Position numbers and translations under genes: made by a program
Shown here: positions 23,358-49,566 of the stretch, in pieces
Layout of the letters: each line of letters opens with the position of its first letter
How positions within the stretch are numbered: the stretch's first letter is position 1
Assembly (NCBI GenBank): GCA_029856365.1
Contig: JAHQWW010000004.1
Location: forward strand, 1 to 64,000
From: Candidatus Hodarchaeota archaeon
Lineage (GTDB): Archaea > Asgardarchaeota > Heimdallarchaeia > Hodarchaeales > Hodarchaeaceae
Direction of reading: 5' to 3'
DNA length: 64,000 bases
Notes under the pieces: model-generated
The model's input: only the letters and a program-made list of their open reading frames with translations
What the model was told of the DNA's origin: nothing
Database searches by the model: none

Positions 23358-23900
23358 ATGAAACAAAAACTAGTGCTTAAATTAGTGCTTCTTGGTGATC
23401 CAGGAGTAGGTAAGACTTCATTAATATCACAGTTCGTTCACGCGCGCTTTCGACACTCTTATCAACTAACAGTTGGGTTAGATATCTCTTCAAAACAAGT
23501 TCAATTAGATGATGGGCGAACAGTAACGCTATCAATTAATGATATTGGCGGTCAAGCTCGGTTTGCAGCCATTCGGCATATGTTCTTCAAGGGTGCCCAT
23601 CTGGCGATGTTTGTTTATGATGTCACCCGGGCTGAAACATTGGATAATATAAAAGATCCTTGGTTCAAAGAATTAATGGAATTTTGTGGCCGATCTAGTA
23701 AAACCAAAGCTGCAATTCAGACAATTTTGGTTGGTAATAAAACGGATCTCGAAGATTATCGAATGATCGAGGAAGAGGAAGGAATCCAACTTGCTAAGGA
23801 AATTAATGCAAAGGGACATATATCTGCCTCCGCTAAAGAAAATATTCAAGTCGATGAGGCTTTTAAGACTTTAGCTCAAAGCTTTTTCGATGAAATTTAG
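23358..23900 (+). CDS. Ras-superfamily (Rab-like) small GTPase
   Basis: G1 GDPGVGKTS, G2 TVG, G3 DIGGQ, G4 NKTD, G5 SAK; no C-terminal Cys prenylation motif. Confidence 0.95.
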   Translation: MKQKLVLKLVLLGDPGVGKTSLISQFVHARFRHSYQLTVGLDISSKQVQLDDGRTVTLSINDIGGQARFAAIRHMFFKGAHLAMFVYDVTRAETLDNIKDPWFKELMEFCGRSSKTKAAIQTILVGNKTDLEDYRMIEEEEGIQLAKEINAKGHISASAKENIQVDEAFKTLAQSFFDEI

Positions 23901-32970: not shown

Positions 32971-33072
32971 AGCGGAGGGCGTGATTCGAACACGCGTAAT
33001 ACAGCTTTGCAGGCTGCTCCTTAGCTAATCGGACTACTAGTCCCGAAGTTATAGCCACTTTGGTACCTCCGC
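32971..33072 (-). tRNA. tRNA-Cys(GCA) with a 28-nt intron in the D-arm (intron ~33022-33049)
   Basis: Acceptor stem GCGGAGG/CCTCCGC, U discriminator, anticodon arm GCAGC-CTGCAAA-GCTGT, T arm GCGTG-TTCGAAT-CACGC. Removing the insert gives a 74-nt tRNA; CCA is not encoded. Confidence 0.92.
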
Positions 33073-36578: not shown

Positions 36579-37289
36579 TTGAAAATCTCAAGGAACCCTT
36601 TGAAACTTTCTTTATAAAGTACATTCGTGCTATACCAAGTACAAGGATTTACTGAACTGAAGTAGGGGTTATATGAATATCTTTTCCCTCTTAGGTCTAA
36701 TTTAGAAGTAAAACCTTTTATTGTTAAGTATTAGACTTCATTGTTTCGTTAAGTATACGGAAGGTTCTTACCTACAAACTATGGCACCTCGACTAAACCG
36801 TTCACCCCAGTCCTTCTTTTTTACCCAAATGACCTGTCTTTCTTCTCCCATGCCAAATATGAGAATTAAATCTATTAGTTATTTCTCCAGAAAATCAATT
36901 TTTGCTCGTATTTTTTTGATTGAGTCTCCTATTAATCATTTCTCATCTGTCTGCTCCCAATACTAGCCTAAAGAGGAGGTACCACTCCCTTCCCTCCTAG
37001 TTAGGGTGTCTTTACGCGTGTTTGCATCTTTTACGTCTTATATTAGTGAACTTCTTGCTTAAATGTTATAGAAAGATTGATATTTCTTAGCCCCCATCAT
37101 ATCACAAAGTGTATGTATATAATAACCAAAAGACATTAGGAAAATGAATATTATAAAATCGGACAGAATGGTTAAGGAATACACAAAAAGTGTAATAAAT
37201 CCGTTCAAATCGGAAAATATTTCTCCAAAGGGTCAGTTTCTTTGCGTGTATTTTGTTGATTGATATGGTCTAATCTGAGGATTTAGAGA

Positions 37290-37673
37290 GTGCCTTTCAT
37301 TAATATCTCATTCGCTGAAGCTAGCCAATCCTTGCAAGATCCGTCTCTTATCGTTGAATTACTAAAAGAGAAGAAAATCAACCCTAAAGAGTCGAATCTT
37401 CTAGAAAAGTTAGGTCTTTTCTCTAGAAACCGGTCTCCAAGTATTCTTGATGAGATAAGGGTACTATGTGAACAATCATTTGGCATCAAAGGTGAAGACG
37501 CGTTTGAAAAATTGTCTCGTTTTGCTAAAAGCCAGAATAAACGTGTTTCTTGGGTGATTTTTTCACGGACATTCCAATCTATTCAATATGATGACCGAAA
37601 TCCTCTGGAAGATTACAATCCTCGCGTGTCAGAAGTGTTAACCATCACTTCTAAATATAAAGTTGTAAAATGA
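37290..37673 (+). CDS. Hypothetical protein
   Basis: 127 aa; ATGA overlap with the next gene. Confidence 0.7.
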   Translation: MPFINISFAEASQSLQDPSLIVELLKEKKINPKESNLLEKLGLFSRNRSPSILDEIRVLCEQSFGIKGEDAFEKLSRFAKSQNKRVSWVIFSRTFQSIQYDDRNPLEDYNPRVSEVLTITSKYKVVK

Positions 37674-39460
37674 CTCGTGTAGTGACTCTAATGCAACAAT
37701 CAGACTGTGAAGAGCTAGTACGTGAAGCAACAGAAGCTTCTAAGCATTCTCTTGATGTTTCAGCAGCGATTTTTGAAGAGGCAGCAAAATGTTATGACAA
37801 ACTGGGAGATCGGAAAAAAGCTGGGCAATATCTCACTTTAGCAGGAGACTTTTTTCTTGATTTAGATAATAAAGAAAGAGCAGCCTCATGTTATGGAAAA
37901 GCAATAATGAGGCATTTAATGATTGATGATATAAACACGGCTGAAATCTTGCTTGAAAAAGGAAAAGAATATGGATTTTCCTCATCAACTCATCAATATA
38001 GAATTGCATTAGATACGCTGGAAAGACAAAAGAAAGCAAAAACTGAGGAAGATGAAACTGAAGAACCAATAAAAGAAGCAGAAGCCCTTCCAGATGTTGA
38101 TATTCTACCACTTGAAGAGGAAGAAGAAGAGGAGTTAATTCCCCTTGATAATGATTTTTTTTCTCTTGACAAAGATACTCAACCAAAAAAGCAAGAATTC
38201 ATGATTCCTCAACTCGAGAAGGAACAACCCTCAACATTAGGTTCCTATGCTGTTCTTGCAGCCGTTTCACAGGTAACAAGAGAGAAAATAAGTCATGAAA
38301 TTCAAACTAATGCATTTGTAAAGAATTCATCTGGTGAATCACAATTTCTTGAACCACAGTTTACCTTAAGTCCAGTAGAACCTATTGATAATTCAAATGA
38401 TGTTGTCGACATATTAACAAGTAGTCATCCTCCTGATTCTGAGGTTAAAGAAGAATCAGTTCCATTTGAATACTTAAAAAGTAGTGATACTCTTGATTTA
38501 GACTATACAGCAAAAACGGAAATCACTAATGAATTTGAGGACGATTTGGTTGATATCGAAATTATTAATACTATTCCATTCAGCTTTCAAGTAGTTAATA
38601 TTGTAACGGAATTTGAATTAGATGAAAAAAAGCGTACAAGTGATGGATTGGTTTTTACTTGGAAAAAAGATAGGATAGAACCTGGAGAAAAGATTTCTGT
38701 TGAGTATATTCTGAGAAAGCGAGTAGAACGCTCTATTATTTTAAGAAAAGAAAACAAAGTTTCTGTGATAAATATTTATCAATCTATACAGCAAGATTTG
38801 CAGGCTAAATTGGATTTTGTGAATACATCGGGAAAAGTTTTTCATGAAATCTTGGTGGAGGATGTCATTCCCCCCGAATTAATAGTCAATAATTCCAATT
38901 CGAACAAAAAAATCAAACCTGTGACAATACCAACACATGATAGTACCCTTTATAGATGGATTTTCAGCACACTGTTACCAGGTGACAATTTTTCCGTATT
39001 TTATGAATTTCGTGAGAAACCTCTAACTAGACATTATATTGATGAGTATGAATGTGATACTGGTTTCGCCAAAATTGAGAAAATATCACAACCAGCTGTG
39101 GATACTAAACAATGTGAGTACTTGTGGTTTTATTCTTTAGAGAATTCGACATCTGATGACATTACTATGATAGATCGAATTCCTTCAGACTACAATCTAA
39201 TGTTAGTAGATCCACCCCATTTGACCCCTTCCATAAAGAAAGAAAAAACTCATCAAGTTCTAACTTGGCAATTAAGTTCTGACGAAGTTAGAATAATACT
39301 AGTTTTAAGGATAAATGGATCCGAGTCATTCACTTCATTGGCACCTTCGATTGAGTTCACTCGTGGAGAACAACCCCAACTAGTTGAGAAGACAACGAAA
39401 TCAGAGAAAAAAATGGTCAACTTGTGTCGTTTGAAAAAAATATTGAAGGAGTCGATTTAA
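37670..39460 (+). CDS. Alpha-SNAP-like N-terminal helical domain + acidic linker + three Ig-like beta-sandwich repeats
   Basis: AAIFEEAAKCY…AGDFF…AASCYGKA; poly-Glu linker; three repeats of (I/V)xN…(D/N)xIP…W. Confidence 0.75.
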   Translation: MTRVVTLMQQSDCEELVREATEASKHSLDVSAAIFEEAAKCYDKLGDRKKAGQYLTLAGDFFLDLDNKERAASCYGKAIMRHLMIDDINTAEILLEKGKEYGFSSSTHQYRIALDTLERQKKAKTEEDETEEPIKEAEALPDVDILPLEEEEEEELIPLDNDFFSLDKDTQPKKQEFMIPQLEKEQPSTLGSYAVLAAVSQVTREKISHEIQTNAFVKNSSGESQFLEPQFTLSPVEPIDNSNDVVDILTSSHPPDSEVKEESVPFEYLKSSDTLDLDYTAKTEITNEFEDDLVDIEIINTIPFSFQVVNIVTEFELDEKKRTSDGLVFTWKKDRIEPGEKISVEYILRKRVERSIILRKENKVSVINIYQSIQQDLQAKLDFVNTSGKVFHEILVEDVIPPELIVNNSNSNKKIKPVTIPTHDSTLYRWIFSTLLPGDNFSVFYEFREKPLTRHYIDEYECDTGFAKIEKISQPAVDTKQCEYLWFYSLENSTSDDITMIDRIPSDYNLMLVDPPHLTPSIKKEKTHQVLTWQLSSDEVRIILVLRINGSESFTSLAPSIEFTRGEQPQLVEKTTKSEKKMVNLCRLKKILKESI

Positions 39461-39481
39461 ACGTCTAATCTGCCAGATTTC

Positions 39482-41425
39482 GTGGAACCACCAAGAATGG
39501 ACCTTACTATCCTTGCAGTCCGCTGGGATGATATTTCAGGTCCATCTATAATTTCTTTGTTTCCGCATGCTGCGTTAAACGACCCTGAATCTGTCGCCTT
39601 GCAAATTTATCTTGCATCTGTGACAGTTTTTGGGCAACATGGTCATTCACAACGAACAGAATTCTCTGTTCCTTTATTAAGCTTAGGTAAAGGTATCTCG
39701 GCCCGTGTTGCTTTTGATTCATGGCCAGATACTAGTTTACGAGGAAAAGAACGTCCATTTTTTTTAGCATTTTTGACAGATCAATCCACAGACGAAATCT
39801 TAAGCTCTCATCTGAATAACTTCATTTTTGAATATCTAGATATCCTGAAAGAGGAGATCGCTGATTTCTCTGCTCAAAAGATCTGGGATAAAATAGCTGA
39901 ATCACTTCATGCTTTAGAGACAGAAGATAAATTCGACGCCATTTCCTTTGAGGTTAATTCGGATTATGCCATTCCTCGAGCTCTACAAGATCTTGAAACC
40001 GCTAAAGAAGCTTGGGAAAATCTCAAGGACAGAAATCAATTATGGACAGCTTTACGTGTTGCAAACAGGTTAGAAAACGTTGATGATAAAGCAGCAGGAT
40101 TTGCTTTCTCTCTAGTCGGCAAGATTTTTTTGACTGGAAACAGTTATCGAGAGGCAGGAGAATCTTATGAAAAAGCCATAAACTGCTACTCTCGCATTCG
40201 ATTGTTTGAGAAAGCTGGTGAAGCTTCATATTTTGCAGGTAAGTGCGCTTATCATTTACAAGAATATGAGAAAGCAATTGAACTTATTCAGGCTGCAACC
40301 CTTTGGATAAAAGATCCCTCCTTAATCGCATCACTCAATTATGATATGGGTATTGTACTCCATGAACAGTCGCGCTATGAAGAATCAAATGTATGCTTTG
40401 AGAAAGCAGTTAGGTTAACATCGGATAAACAGACTGCAGCTGAATATTCATCAACTTTTGCAAGTAAATTAATGCTTCAAGCTGAAAAAGAAAAAGAAGA
40501 AAATCCTACTTATGCGTTTGGATTAATTCGGAGATCAGCTGAACAACGAGAAGAAGCCTCTCGTTTATTACAGTTAACAGAGGAAAACTCTAAAAAAGCA
40601 GCAACATCATTGATCTTGGCAGCGAGCGCTTACTTCTCACTAGGAAATAAAAAAAAAGGAGGGAATCTTTTAGAGGATGCAACAAATCTTTTTATTGAAG
40701 CTGGAGATTATATTTCCGCAGGTAAGTCATTATATGATGGTGCTCGAATGATCAGGGATAGAGAAAGGTCTTATGAGTTACTTTCCCGTGCATTATCTTT
40801 GTTAAGAGAACGAGAGATCACGATTAAAGAAAACAGACTTTTAGGCCTGATTTCATTTGAAAAGGGTAAAATTGAGGAGAAAAAAAACAAGTGTTCTCCT
40901 GCCCTAGAGTCATTTAATTATGCTCTTCAGTGTCTTTCTAGATCAAGTACTCCCATTTCTGATCTTATTCCTGTTCAAATTCAGTATGCCAACGCTCTTT
41001 TTCGAATGGAAGATTTCGAAAAAGCTGCAGAGCTATTTCTTGCTGGAACTAAAGGATTGTCAACACTTCCTTCTACAGAAATTGTCGTGGACCAAAAGAA
41101 AAAAGCATTAATGAATGCATTAATTAGTTTACGTCGAGCAAGTACTGCGTATCATAACGCTGCTATCATTATTCTGAAGGAAAAGGACGAAAACCGTGCG
41201 ATGTCGATGTTCGCTCATTCTGTTTCACTATTGTTAGAGTGGGTCGAAAATAATCCAAAAAGTAATCAAGATGAAGTTAAAAAGGTGGTAACAACCCGTG
41301 TTTCACGTTTATCGTTAAAAAAGGATCTTCTATTGCTAGCTGAGTCCAAATTCAAGTTAGATTCTATGATTGAAAGCCTAAATATGACCCATCAATCACT
41401 TGGAACTACTGATAATAATGAATAA
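39482..41425 (+). CDS. Longin/uDENN-like domain fused to alpha-SNAP/TPR-like solenoid
   Basis: ILAVRWDDISGPSIISLFP; LRGKERPFFLAFL; EAGESYEKAINCY…AGEASYFAGKC. Confidence 0.72.
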   Translation: MEPPRMDLTILAVRWDDISGPSIISLFPHAALNDPESVALQIYLASVTVFGQHGHSQRTEFSVPLLSLGKGISARVAFDSWPDTSLRGKERPFFLAFLTDQSTDEILSSHLNNFIFEYLDILKEEIADFSAQKIWDKIAESLHALETEDKFDAISFEVNSDYAIPRALQDLETAKEAWENLKDRNQLWTALRVANRLENVDDKAAGFAFSLVGKIFLTGNSYREAGESYEKAINCYSRIRLFEKAGEASYFAGKCAYHLQEYEKAIELIQAATLWIKDPSLIASLNYDMGIVLHEQSRYEESNVCFEKAVRLTSDKQTAAEYSSTFASKLMLQAEKEKEENPTYAFGLIRRSAEQREEASRLLQLTEENSKKAATSLILAASAYFSLGNKKKGGNLLEDATNLFIEAGDYISAGKSLYDGARMIRDRERSYELLSRALSLLREREITIKENRLLGLISFEKGKIEEKKNKCSPALESFNYALQCLSRSSTPISDLIPVQIQYANALFRMEDFEKAAELFLAGTKGLSTLPSTEIVVDQKKKALMNALISLRRASTAYHNAAIIILKEKDENRAMSMFAHSVSLLLEWVENNPKSNQDEVKKVVTTRVSRLSLKKDLLLLAESKFKLDSMIESLNMTHQSLGTTDNNE

Positions 41426-41477: not shown

Positions 41478-43682
41478 TTAAACTAGCTTTGGCTTCAGAT
41501 GATTTTCAATTTTATCCTTCTTTTTCTGTAATTTCTCTTTTCTTGCTTTTAACCGATTAATTATCTCCGTATGCTTAGTTTCGGAAATCTCATTATTCAA
41601 AAATTTTTCATCAGTGAAATTAATGGATTCTTCAATACGAGTTAAGGCTTCTTCTATTTCTTGAAGTTGTGGATAACCTATTGGTATACCCTTGCTATTA
41701 AGATCTGATGGAAAGTGTACAGTAACTTTCTTTTCTTTTCTAATATATTTGTGTTTATGTTTACGTTTTGAATCATGACTTTCTATTCTCTTAATGCTCT
41801 TTAGGCCTTTTATAGCCTTTAGACCTTTCTCTCTCATAGGAGCATCACTCAATAATTCATCTTCCCCTACAATGAATCCCATCTTCTCTCCTTTCGAATC
41901 AGTCAATAATAATTGAGGATCTTCTTTAAAGAGAGCTTCTACTCGTTTAGTAAATAACTGATCGAAATTCTGTTTGTCCTGAATGATTTTTGCTTTCATT
42001 TCTTCTAAATTAATTGGATCCCCCTCCTGAATATCTATTCCAAAAACTCGGACTTTTTCTCCAAAAGGTGTCTCAATAACGGAAACAAAAGGAGTCTGTA
42101 CGAAAGAATAGTCGGTTGTTTCTAGGACTGTGACAAAACCTCCAAAAACTTGGAAATATTGGCCAACTCCTTTAACCTCGATAACTTTGACAAGACCTCC
42201 TAAAACATTGACCAATTCTAACATTTTAGATTCAAAAACATAGATTCCTGGTAACCTTACTAAAGAATAGTCTTCTGTTTCTGTTATCGAATACTTAGAT
42301 GGTGTAGTATCCAAAACTGATGAAAAAATCCCTTGTGGTCCGCGCCATGTTTTCAGATCATTCAATGCTTTTTTAGTTTTTTCAAAAATTTCTGTTGCAG
42401 CATCAATACCCGCGTTTTTTAACTCTGCTTCGGTCAGTTCACTCATTTCTTTGGGATTCAATTGGAGTTTTATTTTATCCCATTCTTCTGGCTTTAACCA
42501 AAGTGTGGTTGTTCCTTCAATTGCTTTTTTTGACGAAGTTTCTTGATCTTCTGTCTTTGTTTCCATTTCAGACTTACCCATAAGCACTAACGCAGTTCCT
42601 TTTTCGGTAACCGTTGGAACAGCGATAGCTCCCTTACTAGCCATCACCGATGTGTTTCCCTTACTCACAAGCTTCATCTGATCAGTTGGAATTGTATATA
42701 CTCGTTCTGTTTTCTTGAACTCAGTTTTTTGTATAGTTTGCGCAAAATTCTGAACTCGATTACCAAGCTGACTAGAAGGATCAATAACTTGAACTTGACC
42801 AGAAACAGCATTCATGAGAGATCCAAACCGACTATCCCGTTTTTTTGGTGTAAAAATCAAGATAAATCCTATTAATAAGCTCAGGAATGCAATAAATTGA
42901 AACTGTTCAACATAAAATGAATTAACCCACTGTAATAAAAGTATGATTAACAGAAAGAAACCCCCAGCTAGTAAAGCATCACGAAATCTTTCCGTTGATG
43001 ATTTTAATGCTTGGTACTGATTGAATAGGTCAGTTGTACTCAAAGTTAATTGTTTGGGAGCTACTGGAAACAGATTACCGATTAAAAACATAAAGAATGT
43101 AATCAAAAGCAAAAAATCGAAATCGATTGGGAGTATTGGAATAGGATGGTAAAGATTAATCCCCTGACAAATGTAAAAAAATAGGCTTGCTAACCAACAA
43201 CCTTGAAGAATCCTTTGAATATAAAATAAATAACCCATTTTAAGAATTTTAAAGGAAAAGCTGTTCAGTAAAATAGTAAAAGGAATGAGAATACACACGA
43301 GAGCTCGCTCGAGCTCTCCATAAGATATTATTATAGCTGAATCCCATATATCTGGGATCATACTATTTGGGGTAGAAATTAAGATGAGAAGATAGAAGAT
43401 AAAGATCTTAACAGCACGATTCATTGGAGAAGCTGCTGATTTATCCTCTCCTATGAGATATATATACAATGGGGTGAATAAAAAAAGAGCTATTAGACCA
43501 GTGAATATTGTGGCACGAAATAGTCCAGTTTGTGGGAACAAAAACGCTGATATCCACCAAAAAACCAGTAACAATAGGAATACTAAATCAAGAAATGTCC
43601 TCGGTTTGAAAAATTGTTCTGTTTGGTCTAGTGCAAAACCTTCTAATGACCTGTATTTTGGCAATTGAAAATGTTCTGTCAA
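41478..43682 (-). CDS. Polytopic membrane protein with large soluble beta-rich domain and C-terminal coiled coil
   Basis: About 8 hydrophobic segments in the first ~280 aa; beta-hairpin repeats; basic/coiled-coil tail. Confidence 0.8.
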   Translation of the reverse strand: MTEHFQLPKYRSLEGFALDQTEQFFKPRTFLDLVFLLLLVFWWISAFLFPQTGLFRATIFTGLIALFLFTPLYIYLIGEDKSAASPMNRAVKIFIFYLLILISTPNSMIPDIWDSAIIISYGELERALVCILIPFTILLNSFSFKILKMGYLFYIQRILQGCWLASLFFYICQGINLYHPIPILPIDFDFLLLITFFMFLIGNLFPVAPKQLTLSTTDLFNQYQALKSSTERFRDALLAGGFFLLIILLLQWVNSFYVEQFQFIAFLSLLIGFILIFTPKKRDSRFGSLMNAVSGQVQVIDPSSQLGNRVQNFAQTIQKTEFKKTERVYTIPTDQMKLVSKGNTSVMASKGAIAVPTVTEKGTALVLMGKSEMETKTEDQETSSKKAIEGTTTLWLKPEEWDKIKLQLNPKEMSELTEAELKNAGIDAATEIFEKTKKALNDLKTWRGPQGIFSSVLDTTPSKYSITETEDYSLVRLPGIYVFESKMLELVNVLGGLVKVIEVKGVGQYFQVFGGFVTVLETTDYSFVQTPFVSVIETPFGEKVRVFGIDIQEGDPINLEEMKAKIIQDKQNFDQLFTKRVEALFKEDPQLLLTDSKGEKMGFIVGEDELLSDAPMREKGLKAIKGLKSIKRIESHDSKRKHKHKYIRKEKKVTVHFPSDLNSKGIPIGYPQLQEIEEALTRIEESINFTDEKFLNNEISETKHTEIINRLKARKEKLQKKKDKIENHLKPKLV

Positions 43683-43878: not shown

Positions 43879-46800
43879 TTATTTAATAAGACGTCCTCCA
43901 CAAAATGTACACCCCTCGTTTGTAATTTCCAACGGATTAACTAAAGCTCCACATTCTGAACATACCATAAGCTCTTCTCTCGGTGTATCTAGTTCTAATT
44001 CATCATTTCCATTCGCAAAAATTTCATTTGTTTCCAACTCATGAATCTCTTCTGAAGAAATTAGTGGTACTTTTTCTAGTACTCCTTGAGTTGTTGACTT
44101 TGATACTGATTTAGAGGGTGTATGAGACACTTTGGTTTTAGCATCATTCTTAAAGCTAGCTTTTTTCTTATCACTTGTTTTATTAACCAAAATAACAGGT
44201 TTTGGTTCATCTGTTTGCTTTTCATTCTGAAAAAGACTAACTAAGCCCTGAGATCTTAATTTTTTTTGCTTAGAGGATTTGATACTAATAGTATGCTTTT
44301 TAGTTTTCGTTTTAAGTCTTTTAGTCCTTCGTTTTTTCTTAACACTCTTTTTTTGTTCTTCCAAGAAGTGATATTGTACTTCCTGAGGCTGCGCTGTTTC
44401 TATTTCATTTAAGTCTAGTATCCTTTGTTGTAGTGGCGTTAGTTGCTGAGCTTCCCTTGGATATCGAATCATCCGATCGTAAATTCGTCCAGGCCCAAAA
44501 ACATCTTCAATATATTGATTAACATCTATTAATTTCTGCAAATCATCTTTTGTACTGAGTTCACCTAGCATAAAACTAAGAGTAGCTATAGCGTGTTTCA
44601 CCAAGACTCTTTTTATCGTTTTAAAGTCAAAATCAAAAAGTTGTCGTGGTATAACATGGTTCCCTTTGATATTCAACATCTGAATCCGTGTGCCAGGATC
44701 TACAGAAAATCCTAGATCTTTTAGAATATATGCAGCAGAGACTTGGGGTAATTTTGATTTATATGCTCTCAATGGTTTGTTGATCGCTTTTGGTTTGACA
44801 AAGTAACTGGGATCCATCTGGCCCTCGGTCATCTCAGTTCGAATCAGATTTCCCTCTCTATCGGCATTTTCATATAGCTGATCAAGTGTAATAGGATTGT
44901 CTGGGTTGTACTGATCCAAATAAGTGTTAATAATTCTCTCTTGAAAGTATTTCTGTAGTTGTGAAAAATCCGCTCGTTTTGATTCTAAACCCGTTAGTTC
45001 CTCTTCTATCCACACACGATTTTTCTGATTAAAACTATACACAATATATTTCTTCTTTCCCATTACAAATTGAAAGTCATAAGGCCCATCCTGTTCAAAT
45101 TGAATAAGGCTTTTACTTGATCGTGTAATTGTTTCTCCGTTATTTATCCAATAATTATCATTCTTTGAAACTGTTGCCACTTTTTCATTGAGAATTTTAT
45201 CAATAAGACTGACATTGAAGACTTTAGATCCATTTTCTTCATGAGGATTCTCAATTGTGACAGAAAAGTCCAAGGGGAATAATTTGGGAACCCACAACCA
45301 TATACCGTCAGTATTATGGCAAACAATGCCACCATTTGCAGATACAAAATTATTATTATCTTCTACAGATAGATCATAAACATAGTCAGTAGTCTTTTTT
45401 ATTTTGGTTATTCCTTTCTTCTTTAATCCAATAATTTCATTTAACTTTACATTCTCATAATGTAGTTTACTTCCCTGTTTCCAATTTTCTATATCCATAA
45501 AATTGACCATATACACAATATTTCCAGATGAACTTGAGGTTGTTTCTTGAATACTTACAATATAGCCTAATTCCTTACCTAATACGTACAAATCATCTCG
45601 CAATCCATCACTTGAAGTCCAGAATACCATTCGTTTTCCTTGTTTACTACCATCACCTTTGAAATATCCCGTTAAAAAGGCTTTTTTCACATTTGAACTC
45701 GAATTTAGAATCAACTTGGGAATTCTCTTTTCAAACGCATCTTTTCCACAACCCAATGCCTCAAATAGATGATAAAAGAAGAGGTTATCCATCGCTAATC
45801 TGTATGTTTCAGTTTTAGAATCAGAAAGAGCTGGACTTATTTTAAAATATGATGATAAATTATCTGCAACCATCTCTATTAATTTCTTAATTCGGTTTAG
45901 ATTATCCATATTTTGTTGAGAGATGCCTACACTTATCTTATCGTTATAAATTCCTGATGTACCCTCAGCTACATACCAACCACAAAGTTCAGCGATATTT
46001 TCATCTAGATGAATTTGTATTGGATATTTGTAGCTTCTCAATGTACCAATAAGTGCTTCTTCTGCATATTCATCTTTGAACTCATTCAATGGAATCCTAT
46101 AATAGTTTTTTCTTCTAGTTTTGTCATTTTTATCATATCTAAGACTAGATATTGGATATTTATTCCATTTCTCATTGGTATCTTCAGGTATGAACACATA
46201 TAAATCAATTTCAGTAATCTTGTGTTGGTTGAAATTAATCATTAATTTATTCTTTTTAACAGCAGGAAATCTAGCAATATGAGCAATAAATTCTTCTTCA
46301 AGTTTTTTTACTTCCATCGGTTCAAATAAGTTTTTATTTATATGAAAAATACTATGTGAATCAGTTGTAACAATGCTTCCAAAAGGAGTTTTAATCTTAT
46401 AAACATCTTTCGATGAAATTTGTCTAATACATTTGATAATCGGTTTCCATTCAACTTTACCTATTTTTGAAACTGAAAGGACGGCCCAATCTTCAGGTAC
46501 AATGATATAATCTACTAATCGTGAATTATCTGTTGTTTCAACTCCTTTAATAGACAAACAATAATCATAAAACTCACCAATTGACAAAACTTGAATTAAA
46601 CCATCAGGATCTTGAAAAATTAACCTTTCATTATAATCAAGGCTATCCAATTCTGTGACTAAGCCTATTTGCTCTAGTTGATTCGCAGCCCAAAATATCA
46701 AATTGGCTGATAATTTTGTTGTAATCCCAGCACACGGCATACTTGCATTCCTAACACCTCCTTTCATACCAAGGAGCCCATAAATACTGTTTAAAGGAAC

Positions 46801-49566
46801 TTTCATACCAATCTGGGTACTTTCGTGAAATTTTTGCTGGCGTAGTAATTTAGGAGGAACGGGTCCGTTTTGGTATTTCTGGGAAATAATTTGCGAAAGC
46901 CGTTTGGCTTCGATTTTATGGCGAACTCGGGTGTTAAAGAAGTCATCCATAATTCTAGCAACGAAGTTATAGGCTTTTTGGCAGACACGTGAGTAAACCG
47001 ACAATAATATTGTTATTTTCTTAGTTTTAACATCTAGACTCAAAAATGAATTTGTTGGGAGTTGAATATTCTCTGGTACATCCTCAAAAATATCAAAATG
47101 ATTCTGGTCTAGCTTAGTTGTGAGCTGTGTTGCTTCAATTGAGTTACGAAGCCATTGCTGAAGGGCAACATATGGATCTTTTGAGATATCAGATCCTAGA
47201 TATGTACGACTAACTGGTACTTTTTCTAATTCTGATCCGTTTTTAAGAATATAAGCTTCCGTCTCCTTTCCATCAAATGTGAATATTTCACGAGAGCGAA
47301 TGATACCGTTTTGAGTAGGTTCGTACCTCTTACATTTCGCTTCATTTTCTGCTTTACAAACCGAAGATGCACATTTATCAGGCCCCGTATCTTTGAAACG
47401 ACATGGCCGATTTGCTGAAAGTTTGATTACCCAATCACCCTCATAGAAACAACTATCATCAGGTTCATACAATTCGCACATTCTACACTTAGTTGGAGAG
47501 ATTATTCCCGATGGTTGGAGCTTATATTGACGAATTTGGGAAGGATACATAGAAGTAACGTCAACGTGGACACCCCTGAGTTGAGTTGTTCCATCCAAAG
47601 AAGATAATTTATCTATCTGCGTTAAAACATCTGTAGTAACTCTTTTAACATTAACAGGTTTATATGCAGATATTTTCTCCAAGATAATCCGGATAGAATC
47701 TAGTTGTCGTTTAAGTTCGTGACGTGGAATTCCATTTTTTAAGAGTTCTACCTCTACCTGTTTCAAGAACTGTACTGGATCTTCAGAGAATTCCACTTTC
47801 ACTTCCCCCAATTCAACTAAAAGATGTTTTTCAAATTCTTCTTTAATTACTTTCTTCGCAATTATATTACTTTCTTTTGCAATTACTTGTCTAATAATTT
47901 TTTTGAGGTTTTTTAACGCGTTCTTATTAACTTGATAATCGTAATAGAGATCACTTCGCCATATACCTGGCCTTTTAGCCTCAACCAATCCCCCTGTGTA
48001 AGCTAACGATTCGATGACAATACTAGGTGAAAAAGAAGTAATTCCATTCTTTCCAATCCTCTTTCTCCCTATTATCTGATGTTTATGATCTTCTGCATCG
48101 ATTAAAAGGTCATCTAACGATCCTGCTCGTCGTGTTAAAAGCTCTGACGCTGGAACTGGAAATATTTGACCCATAGAAATGAAAAAGTCAAGGACTATTT
48201 CCCGAACATACTTCCATGTGATGTAACCATCACAACCAGCATAAGCAACAGCTGAAACTGGATCTTTTTTAATGTTAAACAGAGCTTCTCTTCCAATAGG
48301 TATTATTTTCAGCTTTTTCTCCACACTCGGTTTCAAGCCAAGATCTTTTTTAGGAAGATAGCTATATTTCTCATTAAATAGATAAGCATCTAAATGAATA
48401 ACCCCGGCCCCTGACACATGATCAATGTTTGCTGAAGAATAATACCTGTGTAAATCTTTTCGACTCAGGTTCCTTGTCAGACGAAAGTTAATTTCAAAGC
48501 CAGTTTCTTTTTCAAAAGAGATTTTGTACTTTTCCGAACGAATGGCAAGAAAAGGAATATCAAAACGGCCCCCAAAGAAATCTGTAATGACATCTGGGTT
48601 ATAATCATTAATATACTTATAGAATAATTGTATTAGTTCCTTCTCAGTCTTTACAATGATAACTTCTATCGAGAACTTCTCGATTACATCTGGGAATTCC
48701 TGTGGTGCATCTGAATATTTCCAATCGACCCACGGTTTAGGATGGGTATCATCATCCTTTTGACGAAGGAGCATATCAAAATTTTTGACATTTTTTGTCT
48801 CGATAACTCTTGAATTAATAATTAATTTGTTTTCACTGCCAGTAAACAGTGAAATCATTGAAATCTCGTCTTTATTAGGATTAGGATCACGTGTTTGTTC
48901 AAAATCTGTTTCAATATCAAATGCTAGAATTTTTAATTGAGGAGGTGTTTTATCAGGTAATGGAGACAGATTAAGAATTTCTCCTCGGCTTATTTCAGCC
49001 AGGTACCAAGCTCCAACTCGAACATCATGATCTATTGCGCAACGATGATGAAACAGTACATCTGCTTCCCTCCATTCCTGTACTCCACTTATTTCTTCAC
49101 TTTTTGCCCGTAGATTTGGTACAGATCCTGGACGATCTGCAGTTACTTTAATAAATGGTTTTCTAAATAAAAATGTAAGATCGGCTGCGTCATAATAATC
49201 ACCCTTCTCTACTTTAATTACCTGTTTGTCTCCAATTTCTTTAATCTGCCCCATTATTCTATTGATTTCATTCTGTGATAAACTATCCTCAAGTAATAGG
49301 AAATAATATGGTTCATGTCTTAAAAATGCTTTACGCTTCTTATGGTCTTCATCTAAGAAATAGATTTGGATTCCATTTATTAATTTCGCTTTGCTATACT
49401 CTGTATCTTCGTATTGAGATACAGAATCATATGTATCCTCCCATTGACTATGAGTTTCATAATCTAATATGAAAATAGGTATCTTTTCTCGCTCATTATA
49501 ACGAAATGGTTGAAACCAAGATCGGTAACCTGGATGAAAAGTCTTTGTCCGTCTTGGTTTTGACAT
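43879..49566 (-). CDS. polB: Family B DNA polymerase, Pol epsilon-like, intein-containing
   Basis: ExoI AFDIET, ExoII FDIPF, YTGG, DVTSMYPS, KVPLNSIYG, ELD|TDG split by the intein; Cys motif; C-terminal CSECG…CTFCG. Confidence 0.95.
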   Translation of the reverse strand: MSKPRRTKTFHPGYRSWFQPFRYNEREKIPIFILDYETHSQWEDTYDSVSQYEDTEYSKAKLINGIQIYFLDEDHKKRKAFLRHEPYYFLLLEDSLSQNEINRIMGQIKEIGDKQVIKVEKGDYYDAADLTFLFRKPFIKVTADRPGSVPNLRAKSEEISGVQEWREADVLFHHRCAIDHDVRVGAWYLAEISRGEILNLSPLPDKTPPQLKILAFDIETDFEQTRDPNPNKDEISMISLFTGSENKLIINSRVIETKNVKNFDMLLRQKDDDTHPKPWVDWKYSDAPQEFPDVIEKFSIEVIIVKTEKELIQLFYKYINDYNPDVITDFFGGRFDIPFLAIRSEKYKISFEKETGFEINFRLTRNLSRKDLHRYYSSANIDHVSGAGVIHLDAYLFNEKYSYLPKKDLGLKPSVEKKLKIIPIGREALFNIKKDPVSAVAYAGCDGYITWKYVREIVLDFFISMGQIFPVPASELLTRRAGSLDDLLIDAEDHKHQIIGRKRIGKNGITSFSPSIVIESLAYTGGLVEAKRPGIWRSDLYYDYQVNKNALKNLKKIIRQVIAKESNIIAKKVIKEEFEKHLLVELGEVKVEFSEDPVQFLKQVEVELLKNGIPRHELKRQLDSIRIILEKISAYKPVNVKRVTTDVLTQIDKLSSLDGTTQLRGVHVDVTSMYPSQIRQYKLQPSGIISPTKCRMCELYEPDDSCFYEGDWVIKLSANRPCRFKDTGPDKCASSVCKAENEAKCKRYEPTQNGIIRSREIFTFDGKETEAYILKNGSELEKVPVSRTYLGSDISKDPYVALQQWLRNSIEATQLTTKLDQNHFDIFEDVPENIQLPTNSFLSLDVKTKKITILLSVYSRVCQKAYNFVARIMDDFFNTRVRHKIEAKRLSQIISQKYQNGPVPPKLLRQQKFHESTQIGMKVPLNSIYGLLGMKGGVRNASMPCAGITTKLSANLIFWAANQLEQIGLVTELDSLDYNERLIFQDPDGLIQVLSIGEFYDYCLSIKGVETTDNSRLVDYIIVPEDWAVLSVSKIGKVEWKPIIKCIRQISSKDVYKIKTPFGSIVTTDSHSIFHINKNLFEPMEVKKLEEEFIAHIARFPAVKKNKLMINFNQHKITEIDLYVFIPEDTNEKWNKYPISSLRYDKNDKTRRKNYYRIPLNEFKDEYAEEALIGTLRSYKYPIQIHLDENIAELCGWYVAEGTSGIYNDKISVGISQQNMDNLNRIKKLIEMVADNLSSYFKISPALSDSKTETYRLAMDNLFFYHLFEALGCGKDAFEKRIPKLILNSSSNVKKAFLTGYFKGDGSKQGKRMVFWTSSDGLRDDLYVLGKELGYIVSIQETTSSSSGNIVYMVNFMDIENWKQGSKLHYENVKLNEIIGLKKKGITKIKKTTDYVYDLSVEDNNNFVSANGGIVCHNTDGIWLWVPKLFPLDFSVTIENPHEENGSKVFNVSLIDKILNEKVATVSKNDNYWINNGETITRSSKSLIQFEQDGPYDFQFVMGKKKYIVYSFNQKNRVWIEEELTGLESKRADFSQLQKYFQERIINTYLDQYNPDNPITLDQLYENADREGNLIRTEMTEGQMDPSYFVKPKAINKPLRAYKSKLPQVSAAYILKDLGFSVDPGTRIQMLNIKGNHVIPRQLFDFDFKTIKRVLVKHAIATLSFMLGELSTKDDLQKLIDVNQYIEDVFGPGRIYDRMIRYPREAQQLTPLQQRILDLNEIETAQPQEVQYHFLEEQKKSVKKKRRTKRLKTKTKKHTISIKSSKQKKLRSQGLVSLFQNEKQTDEPKPVILVNKTSDKKKASFKNDAKTKVSHTPSKSVSKSTTQGVLEKVPLISSEEIHELETNEIFANGNDELELDTPREELMVCSECGALVNPLEITNEGCTFCGGRLIK
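45313..46644 (-). mobile_element. Intein (444 aa) with LAGLIDADG homing endonuclease in polymerase motif C
   Basis: Starts SLDYNE, block B TTDSHSIF, LCGWYVAEG and FLTGYFKGDG, ends YVYDLSVEDNNNFVSANGGIVCHN with +1 Thr. Confidence 0.95.

Follow-up and report, generated by a model that had tools for sequence, protein, structure and literature searches.

A conserved three-gene operon of Hodarchaeales carries a longin-tetratricopeptide repeat protein with the motifs of GTPase-activating longins

Introduction

Which cellular process is served by three soluble archaeal proteins that combine a longin-like domain, helical repeats and beta-sandwiches? The question is raised by positions 37290–41425 of contig JAHQWW010000004.1 (assembly GCA_029856365.1) of Candidatus Hodarchaeota archaeon, which lie within the stretch of 64,000 nucleotides analysed here (positions 1–64000 of the contig, called the window below; coordinates without a locus prefix refer to it). 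The three genes found there, numbered 1 to 3 in the order of transcription, had been taken in an original prediction for a forerunner of the membrane-trafficking machinery, with alpha-SNAP-like solenoids, a longin/uDENN-like domain and adaptin-like repeats joined in a complex that links GTPase regulation to a coat-like scaffold. Our analysis leans toward the regulation of an Arf- or Rag-family GTPase in the cytosol, most likely by a GTPase-activating protein (GAP) working through residue R87 of the gene 3 protein, with the tetratricopeptide repeats (TPR) of that protein as scaffold and the products of genes 1 and 2 as partners. We hold this reading with guarded confidence, as somewhat probable.

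Results and discussion

The N-terminal head of the gene 3 protein is, by its predicted structure, a longin domain that stands closest to GAP-type longins. Gene 3 occupies 39482–41425 on the forward strand and encodes 647 amino acids from a GTG start; the 642-residue form found in databases starts at an in-frame ATG, at 39497. The longin domain covers residues 6–150 (39497–39931, +), and the first 150 residues are the best-conserved part of the protein. An AlphaFold2 model of this head (19 sequences) reached a predicted local distance difference test score (pLDDT) of 85.8 and a predicted template modelling score of 0.80, and its elements follow one another as beta1-beta2-alpha1-beta3-beta4-beta5-alpha2-alpha3, which is the order of longin and not of roadblock domains. 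Among PDB structures, the top Foldseek matches were GATOR1 chains, the longin of a Lokiarchaeal Roadblock-Longin protein, FLCN-FNIP2, Lst4, Ykt6 and DENND1. VIA-align, which is independent of Foldseek and has a stated background of Z 7–8, placed 8yqg_B first (Z 13.7, root-mean-square deviation 2.8 Å over 131 residues), ahead of Lst4 (10.5), a chain of the folliculin complex (10.2), FNIP2 (9.8) and a chain of the SEA complex with Npr2/3 (9.5); roadblock, Ragulator, Mon1-Ccz1, DENN, C9orf72-SMCR8, TRAPP and the small and medium adaptin chains came lower, at Z 7–9. The assignment to a GAP-type-like longin follows from these two rankings, and it bears out the earlier view that gene 3 begins with a longin-like domain. 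As to the uDENN suggested at the same time, the longin of gene 3 is followed by TPRs and the protein contains no DENN module. The best structural match, the Lokiarchaeota Roadblock-Longin protein (8yqg), differs in combining a roadblock and a longin domain in about 270 residues, and its sequence is not closely related, since the family profile missed it even at an E value of 10.

The residues that distinguish GAP-type longins are conserved in this head. The stretch W15-D16-D17-I-S-G20-P21 (39524–39544, +) holds a WD and a GP motif at the turn between beta1 and beta2, where W15-D16 close the first strand of the model and G20-P21 open the second. R87 (39740–39742, +), a candidate arginine finger, falls in the beta4-beta5 loop, between model strands 67–78 and 84–95. 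W15, D16, G20, P21 and R87 are all invariant in the alignment of the gene 3 family. Two features, an arginine finger and a GP motif located where the beta1-beta2 loop ends or beta2 starts, characterise the longin GAPs FLCN, NPRL2, SMCR8 and C9orf72, the last of which also has the WD motif; these features are absent from the longins of FNIP2, NPRL3, adaptin, TRAPP and DENND proteins (PMC12290439). A class of Asgard longins bears the same GAP motifs (Traffic 2025, PMC12290439), and the catalytic arginine of longin/DENN GAPs sits between beta4 and beta5 (bioRxiv 10.64898/2026.01.05.697756). The (F/W)DxxxGP signature, on which the first reading of this locus had relied, is thus real, conserved and tied to small-GTPase regulation; what did not hold was its attribution to uDENN/longin domains at large, as the GP motif marks the GAP type and not DENN or adaptin longins as a whole (PMC12290439).

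The same residues persist across a much wider family, in which links to GTPases recur. The profile of the longin head retrieved 119 proteins among 1.84 billion representatives, and the 104 representatives ranked below the 15 closest matches were re-aligned as remote relatives. W15 was retained in 98% of these, G20 in 99%, D16 in 87% and P21 in 84%, and R87 in 96 of 101, which places the WD/GP residues and R87 among the most conserved positions; D79 (87%), P28 (85%) and G88 (85%) were also well kept. Pfam domains in the 61 remote relatives that were scanned included Arf-family GTPases (16), receivers (14), PAS (10), TPR (9) and histidine-kinase ATPases (6), in architectures such as longin-Arf, X-Arf-longin-PAS with or without a kinase or GAF domain, receiver-longin, longin-PAS and longin-TPR. 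Two Loki-type genomes have a receiver-longin gene, coding for about 300 residues, with a gene for a Gtr1/RagA/Arf-like GTPase of 184–188 residues immediately behind it (L027:6161-7651, +; L026:6279-7753, -), and these neighbours offer a defined longin-GTPase pair. The fusions to GTPases and receivers agree with the description of Asgard longins by Liu et al. (bioRxiv 10.1101/2020.10.19.343400), who reported NPRL2-like longins fused to two-component domains as well as longin-GTPase fusions in Asgard archaea. Within 399 Asgard genomes, the head profile matched every one of the 21 genomes of the genus and the two genomes of a second family of the order, found no match in the other families of the class, and gave weaker matches in many genomes from further families that are probably Lokiarchaeial. 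The predicted connection with GTPase regulation is supported as far as the longin with its GAP motifs and the Arf/Rag-like GTPases fused to or adjoining its relatives are concerned. The particular GTPase that had been proposed as a partner, a Ras/Rab-like protein encoded at 23358–23900, lies 14 kb from the operon, and no conserved link between the two was seen.

In the mechanism that we favour, gene 3 would supply the active part; its longin belongs to the Asgard family described as NPRL2-like or of the FLCN-SMCR8 type. The sheet of the longin would offer the docking site for an Arf- or Rag-family GTPase, whose GTP hydrolysis would be stimulated by R87, a residue of the beta4-beta5 loop presumed to lie beside the WD/GP turn between beta1 and beta2. 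The TPR solenoid of about 490 residues would stand where the eukaryotic proteins have their DENN module and would form a scaffold for binding. Partners made together with the gene 3 protein would come from genes 1 and 2, and the acidic hinge and three Ig-like sandwiches of the gene 2 protein could bind further ligands.

Several points weigh against a GAP mechanism. The head has no sequence-level match to the eukaryotic longin GAPs: its profile found nothing meaningful among PDB sequences even at an E value of 10, and neither Pfam nor NCBIfam assigned it a family. The position of R87 rests on the secondary structure of a predicted model, and the eukaryotic DENN module has no equivalent after the longin. 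Eukaryotic longin GAPs act as longin heterodimers; near this operon neither a second longin nor a roadblock gene occurs, the domain of the gene 3 head being single-copy in the genome and the 10 roadblock genes all lying elsewhere. No GTPase gene was found in or next to the operon, and none of the at least 53 small-GTPase matches in the genome is linked to it; the two best Arf matches lie on contig C91 at 37980–39068. Many longin and roadblock domains are guanine nucleotide exchange factors (GEFs) or passive platforms, and the longin-GTPase fusions of the wider family would also fit a role in dimerisation or as a platform. These considerations lead to an alternative in which the longin binds a GTPase without acting as a GAP, whether as exchange factor, effector or docking and dimerisation platform in the manner of Mon1-Ccz1, TRAPP, Ragulator and the Rag C-terminal domains, while the TPRs recruit other proteins. 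Such a role suits fusions in which longin and GTPase would meet in cis, it dispenses with the second longin of a GAP-type heterodimer, and it is in keeping with the structural matches to roadblock, Ragulator, TRAPP, Mon1-Ccz1 and DENN chains. The residues that are conserved, however, are those tied to GAP and not to GEF longins (the GP motif and the beta4-beta5 arginine; PMC12290439), and it is the GAP-type longins that head the structural ranking; we consider a non-GAP role possible but rather unlikely.

The helical part of the gene 3 protein consists of TPRs, with nothing specific to alpha-SNAP. The solenoid spans residues 160–647 (39959–41425, +), and it was recognised by Pfam and by a profile search of PDB sequences. 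At residues 214–340, Pfam reported ANAPC3 (41.4 bits), TPR_2 (39.1 bits), TPR_12 and SNAP (30.7 bits, cut-off 25), and 24 matches among PDB sequences at an E value of 0.01 or better were nearly all consensus or designed TPR proteins, with no alpha-SNAP among them. The some 480 residues of SNAP/TPR-like repeats that had been foreseen are therefore present as TPR-type repeats of about 490 residues, and the SNAP half of the description is not specific. What the protein shares with alpha-SNAP/Sec17 (PF14938) is a stack of TPR-like helical hairpins and a SNAP score above the cut-off; it differs in that generic TPR families score higher, that the head of the gene 2 protein stays below the SNAP cut-off (18.9 bits against 25), and that the setting offers no SNARE or NSF. 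We accordingly rejected an alpha-SNAP identity for these helices and regard them, on their sequence matches, as generic TPRs. Because they match consensus TPRs better than SNAP, nothing points to a part in SNARE or NSF recycling.

This generic character could also favour a still simpler view, in which the operon encodes a TPR scaffold or co-chaperone set unconnected with GTPases and the longin-like head is only a binding or oligomerisation domain. That the operon has no GTPase gene, and that genes 1 and 2 occur without an adjoining gene 3 in other Asgard families, would accord with such a set. It would be hard to reconcile with near-invariant WD, GP and arginine residues across diverse architectures and with repeated fusion or adjacency to Arf/Rag-like GTPases, and we judge it improbable.

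Gene 2 (37670–39460, +) encodes a protein of 596 residues with a helical head, a hinge and an all-beta C-terminal part, an arrangement that AlphaFold2 and composition confirm much as it had been described from the sequence (helical domain, acidic linker, three beta-sandwich repeats). The head (residues 1–120; 37670–38029, +) is made of TPR/SNAP-like helical hairpins, is strongly conserved with many invariant residues, and was recognised by TPR_8 and, below the cut-off, by SNAP (E 1.2e-3); weak TPR and SNAP matches of this kind were all that Pfam and NCBIfam gave for the protein. The head also has a weak profile match to the TPRs of gene 3 (hhalign E 2e-4 over 51 columns). The hinge (residues 121–272; 38030–38485, +), delimited by composition and the family alignment, begins with an acidic stretch in which 22 of 56 residues (121–176) are D or E, and it continues, after a conserved section, as a variable linker. 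In that section (residues 177–207; 38198–38290) of a hinge that is poorly conserved elsewhere, we noted a P-Q-L motif near residue 180 and a hydrophobic A-V-L-A-A-V-S segment leading to an invariant arginine at about residues 193–204; these motifs might serve as a docking peptide or form a short amphipathic helix. The C-terminal part (residues 275–579; 38492–39406, +) was modelled at pLDDT 74 as three beta-sandwiches (about 275–368, 377–475 and 482–579) and a terminal helix. The sandwich module was found in 128 of 399 Asgard genomes, including those of other Heimdall-group families, and is thus spread more widely than the longin head.

The sandwiches gave no support above background for the proposed adaptin-like nature. 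Foldseek returned nothing under an E value of 1e-3. VIA-align, which effectively covered the third sandwich and barely the first two, gave as its best match the mu-homology domain of SGIP1 (Z 7.7, root-mean-square deviation 2.8 Å, 102 residues), tied at Z 7.7 or less, within the stated background, with CBM2, macroglobulin, pilin and toxin domains. DUF11 (PF01345) did not match the gene 2 protein of the window at an E value of 1 or better, and a distant homologue at locus L034 passed the Pfam cut-off for DUF11 marginally (25.0 bits against 24.6). A mu-homology or adaptin reading is thus not supported by the match of the third sandwich, since unrelated beta-sandwiches score equally.

The proposal of a coat- or adaptor-like trafficking complex, made of a solenoid trunk, a hinge, a sandwich appendage, a longin subunit and SNAP-like handling of SNAREs, is likewise not supported. 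The succession of head, hinge and sandwiches in the gene 2 protein does recall the trunk, hinge and ear of adaptins, mu-homology chains make up nine of the 50 listed VIA-align matches of the third sandwich, and the longins of AP sigma and mu chains match the gene 3 head at Z 7.3–8.4. The likeness to adaptor and coat subunits is nevertheless one of layout only (a helical part, an acidic hinge, beta-sandwiches and a longin partner), since coat longins are of the sigma/mu type and that of gene 3 is nearer to the GAP type, and since the sandwich scores lie at background. SNAP is outscored by generic TPR families, as described above, no membrane-binding element was detected, and no SNARE, NSF or coat gene lies near the operon. 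We regard a coat-like organisation as highly improbable, and the GTPase regulator built around the gene 3 longin remains the reading that we prefer.

The three genes form a compact and conserved unit. All are co-oriented, the stop codon of gene 1 overlaps the start of gene 2 in an ATGA, and gene 3 follows gene 2 after 21 bp, exactly as first described. Their products are cytosolic, as had been supposed: no signal peptide or transmembrane segment was found in any of them, the highest mean Kyte-Doolittle hydropathy over 19 residues being 1.28. A GAGG-type ribosome-binding motif stands about 10 bases 5' of the GTG of gene 1, and the roughly 710 bp upstream of that gene (36579–37289) hold neither a long open reading frame (ORF) nor an Rfam match; the GC content of the window is about 35%. 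Homologues of the three proteins fall into 62, 70 and 67 clusters (67 for gene 1) at 46–100% identity, and their source assemblies, which include dozens of Hodarchaeales assemblies, are named Hodarchaeales, Hodarchaeota or Heimdallarchaeota only. NCBI locus tags place genes 1, 2 and 3 side by side in many assemblies, and each of the seven genomes of the genus that were inspected, some with only about 50% identity, preserves their order and spacing; the synteny that had been proposed as a check is thus conserved within the genus. Of two genomes from the second family of the order, one has a gene 2-like gene adjoining a gene 3-like gene and the other does not. Three Loki-type genomes carry gene 2-like genes 5' of a longin-TPR gene, and in two of the three a further TPR gene stands between them. 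As all three families and the gene order are conserved, the arrangement is not due to chance. Their translational coupling and their conserved neighbourhood make genes 1 and 2 probable partners of gene 3. The three-protein complex that had been postulated received no predicted interface: pairing full-length gene 3 protein with residues 1–232 of the gene 2 protein gave a score of 0.00 (mark 0.32), a result that speaks neither for nor against binding.

Gene 1 (37290–37673, +, GTG start) encodes a soluble protein of 127 residues to which no fold could be assigned. It has 67 homologues of about 127 residues, all from Hodarchaeales-type assemblies and with locus tags adjoining those of gene 2. Searches of Pfam, NCBIfam and PDB sequences gave no match, apart from a marginal alignment of its profile with a phosphohydrolase chain, in the N-terminal region (E 0.03, domain E 0.85), which was not used. 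The 200-residue ORFs that precede gene 2-like genes in further families of the Heimdall group showed no relation to it. In genome G116, from another Asgard family, a 130-residue ORF resembling gene 1 (hhalign probability 81%) overlaps a gene 2-like gene for 567 residues (L034:5162-7226, +), whose product has TPR_12 and weak MIT and SNAP matches beside the marginal DUF11, and no longin-TPR gene adjoins the pair. As this locus has the pair without gene 3, the association of genes 1 and 2 seems to predate their link to a longin-TPR gene, which is seen in some lineages.

More elaborate versions of the cluster occur in Loki-type genomes. At L023:476-8918 (+, genome G174) and L036:2783-8983 (-, genome G172), co-oriented genes begin with one or two gene 2-like genes, which match the sandwich part at hhalign E 1e-11 to 1e-12, continue with a TPR gene for about 680 residues, and end with an intact longin-TPR gene. 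The head of the middle TPR gene keeps W-D and has lost the P of the GP motif and the R-G of the beta4-beta5 loop; its similarity to the longin is weak (hhalign E 0.0034, probability 10%). By analogy with the eukaryotic longin GAP heterodimers, this looks like a pair of one catalytic and one degenerate subunit. We also noted, at L037:3972-10099 (-, genome G133), a 1362-residue ORF that overlaps the start of a 680-residue longin-TPR gene by four bases; a genome search found a gene 2-like sandwich region at its C terminus, and no Pfam family matched the protein. A bolder reading would make the operon an archaeal counterpart of folliculin, GATOR1 or C9orf72-SMCR8, in which a longin with WD, GP and arginine, carried on TPRs and in a stable complex with the products of genes 1 and 2, switches off an Arf/Rag-like GTPase, and in which the intact and degenerate genes of the Loki-type clusters represent an archaeal heterodimer of catalytic and non-catalytic subunits. 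We put this forward as a tentative idea that may well prove wrong.

The surroundings of the operon are equally stable. In the seven same-genus genomes the order runs gelsolin, HMG-CoA reductase, NUDIX (opposite strand), genes 1-2-3, a gene for 734 residues (opposite strand) and a family B DNA polymerase (opposite strand). The 734-residue gene (41478–43682, -) is convergent with gene 3, keeps its place in all same-genus genomes checked, and has no Pfam or NCBIfam match. The polymerase (1895 residues; 43879–49566, -) contains an intein with a LAGLIDADG endonuclease, as recognised by Pfam, which is absent from most relatives inspected (tblastn joined two pieces across a gap) and apparently retained in L017. 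No RNA gene was found in positions 1–64000 by Rfam at gathering scores or by ARAGORN; a suggested intron-bearing tRNA-Cys at 32971–33072 was not confirmed by the default searches, from which an odd intron could hide a tRNA.

Conclusions

The operon encodes a known class of domain in an apparently new setting. The Asgard longins with a GP motif, already described in the literature (Liu et al., bioRxiv 10.1101/2020.10.19.343400; PMC12290439), share with gene 3 the fold, the GP motif, the conserved arginine and the wider family. That family is fused to two-component domains and Arf/Rag-like GTPases; gene 3 joins its longin to a TPR solenoid, and its neighbours in the conserved operon encode a beta-sandwich protein and a protein of 127 residues. 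We did not find a description of the TPR fusion or of the three-gene operon in the main texts of the papers searched, among them that of PMC12290439 with its 15 Asgard longins. With FLCN-FNIP, GATOR1 (NPRL2-NPRL3) and C9orf72-SMCR8-WDR41, gene 3 shares the longin fold (Z 8.7–10.5), the WD motif (known from C9orf72) and the GP motif in the turn between beta1 and beta2, and an arginine that the model places between beta4 and beta5; it differs from these complexes in having no DENN module, no detectable sequence homology and no paired second longin. It therefore stands outside the full-length FLCN/SMCR8/NPRL2 family, whose members combine a DENN (or NPRL2-specific) module with a longin heterodimer.

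This analysis corrects the coat and SNAP reading, which is without support. In eukaryotes, longin GAP complexes govern nutrient signalling and lysosome traffic. The operon offers a defined, soluble and conserved set of three proteins from Hodarchaeales, close archaeal relatives of eukaryotes. With residues that can be mutated (W15, D16, G20, P21 and R87) and a finite list of candidate GTPases from its own genome, it makes the question of whether the Asgard longins with a GP motif act as GAPs directly testable.

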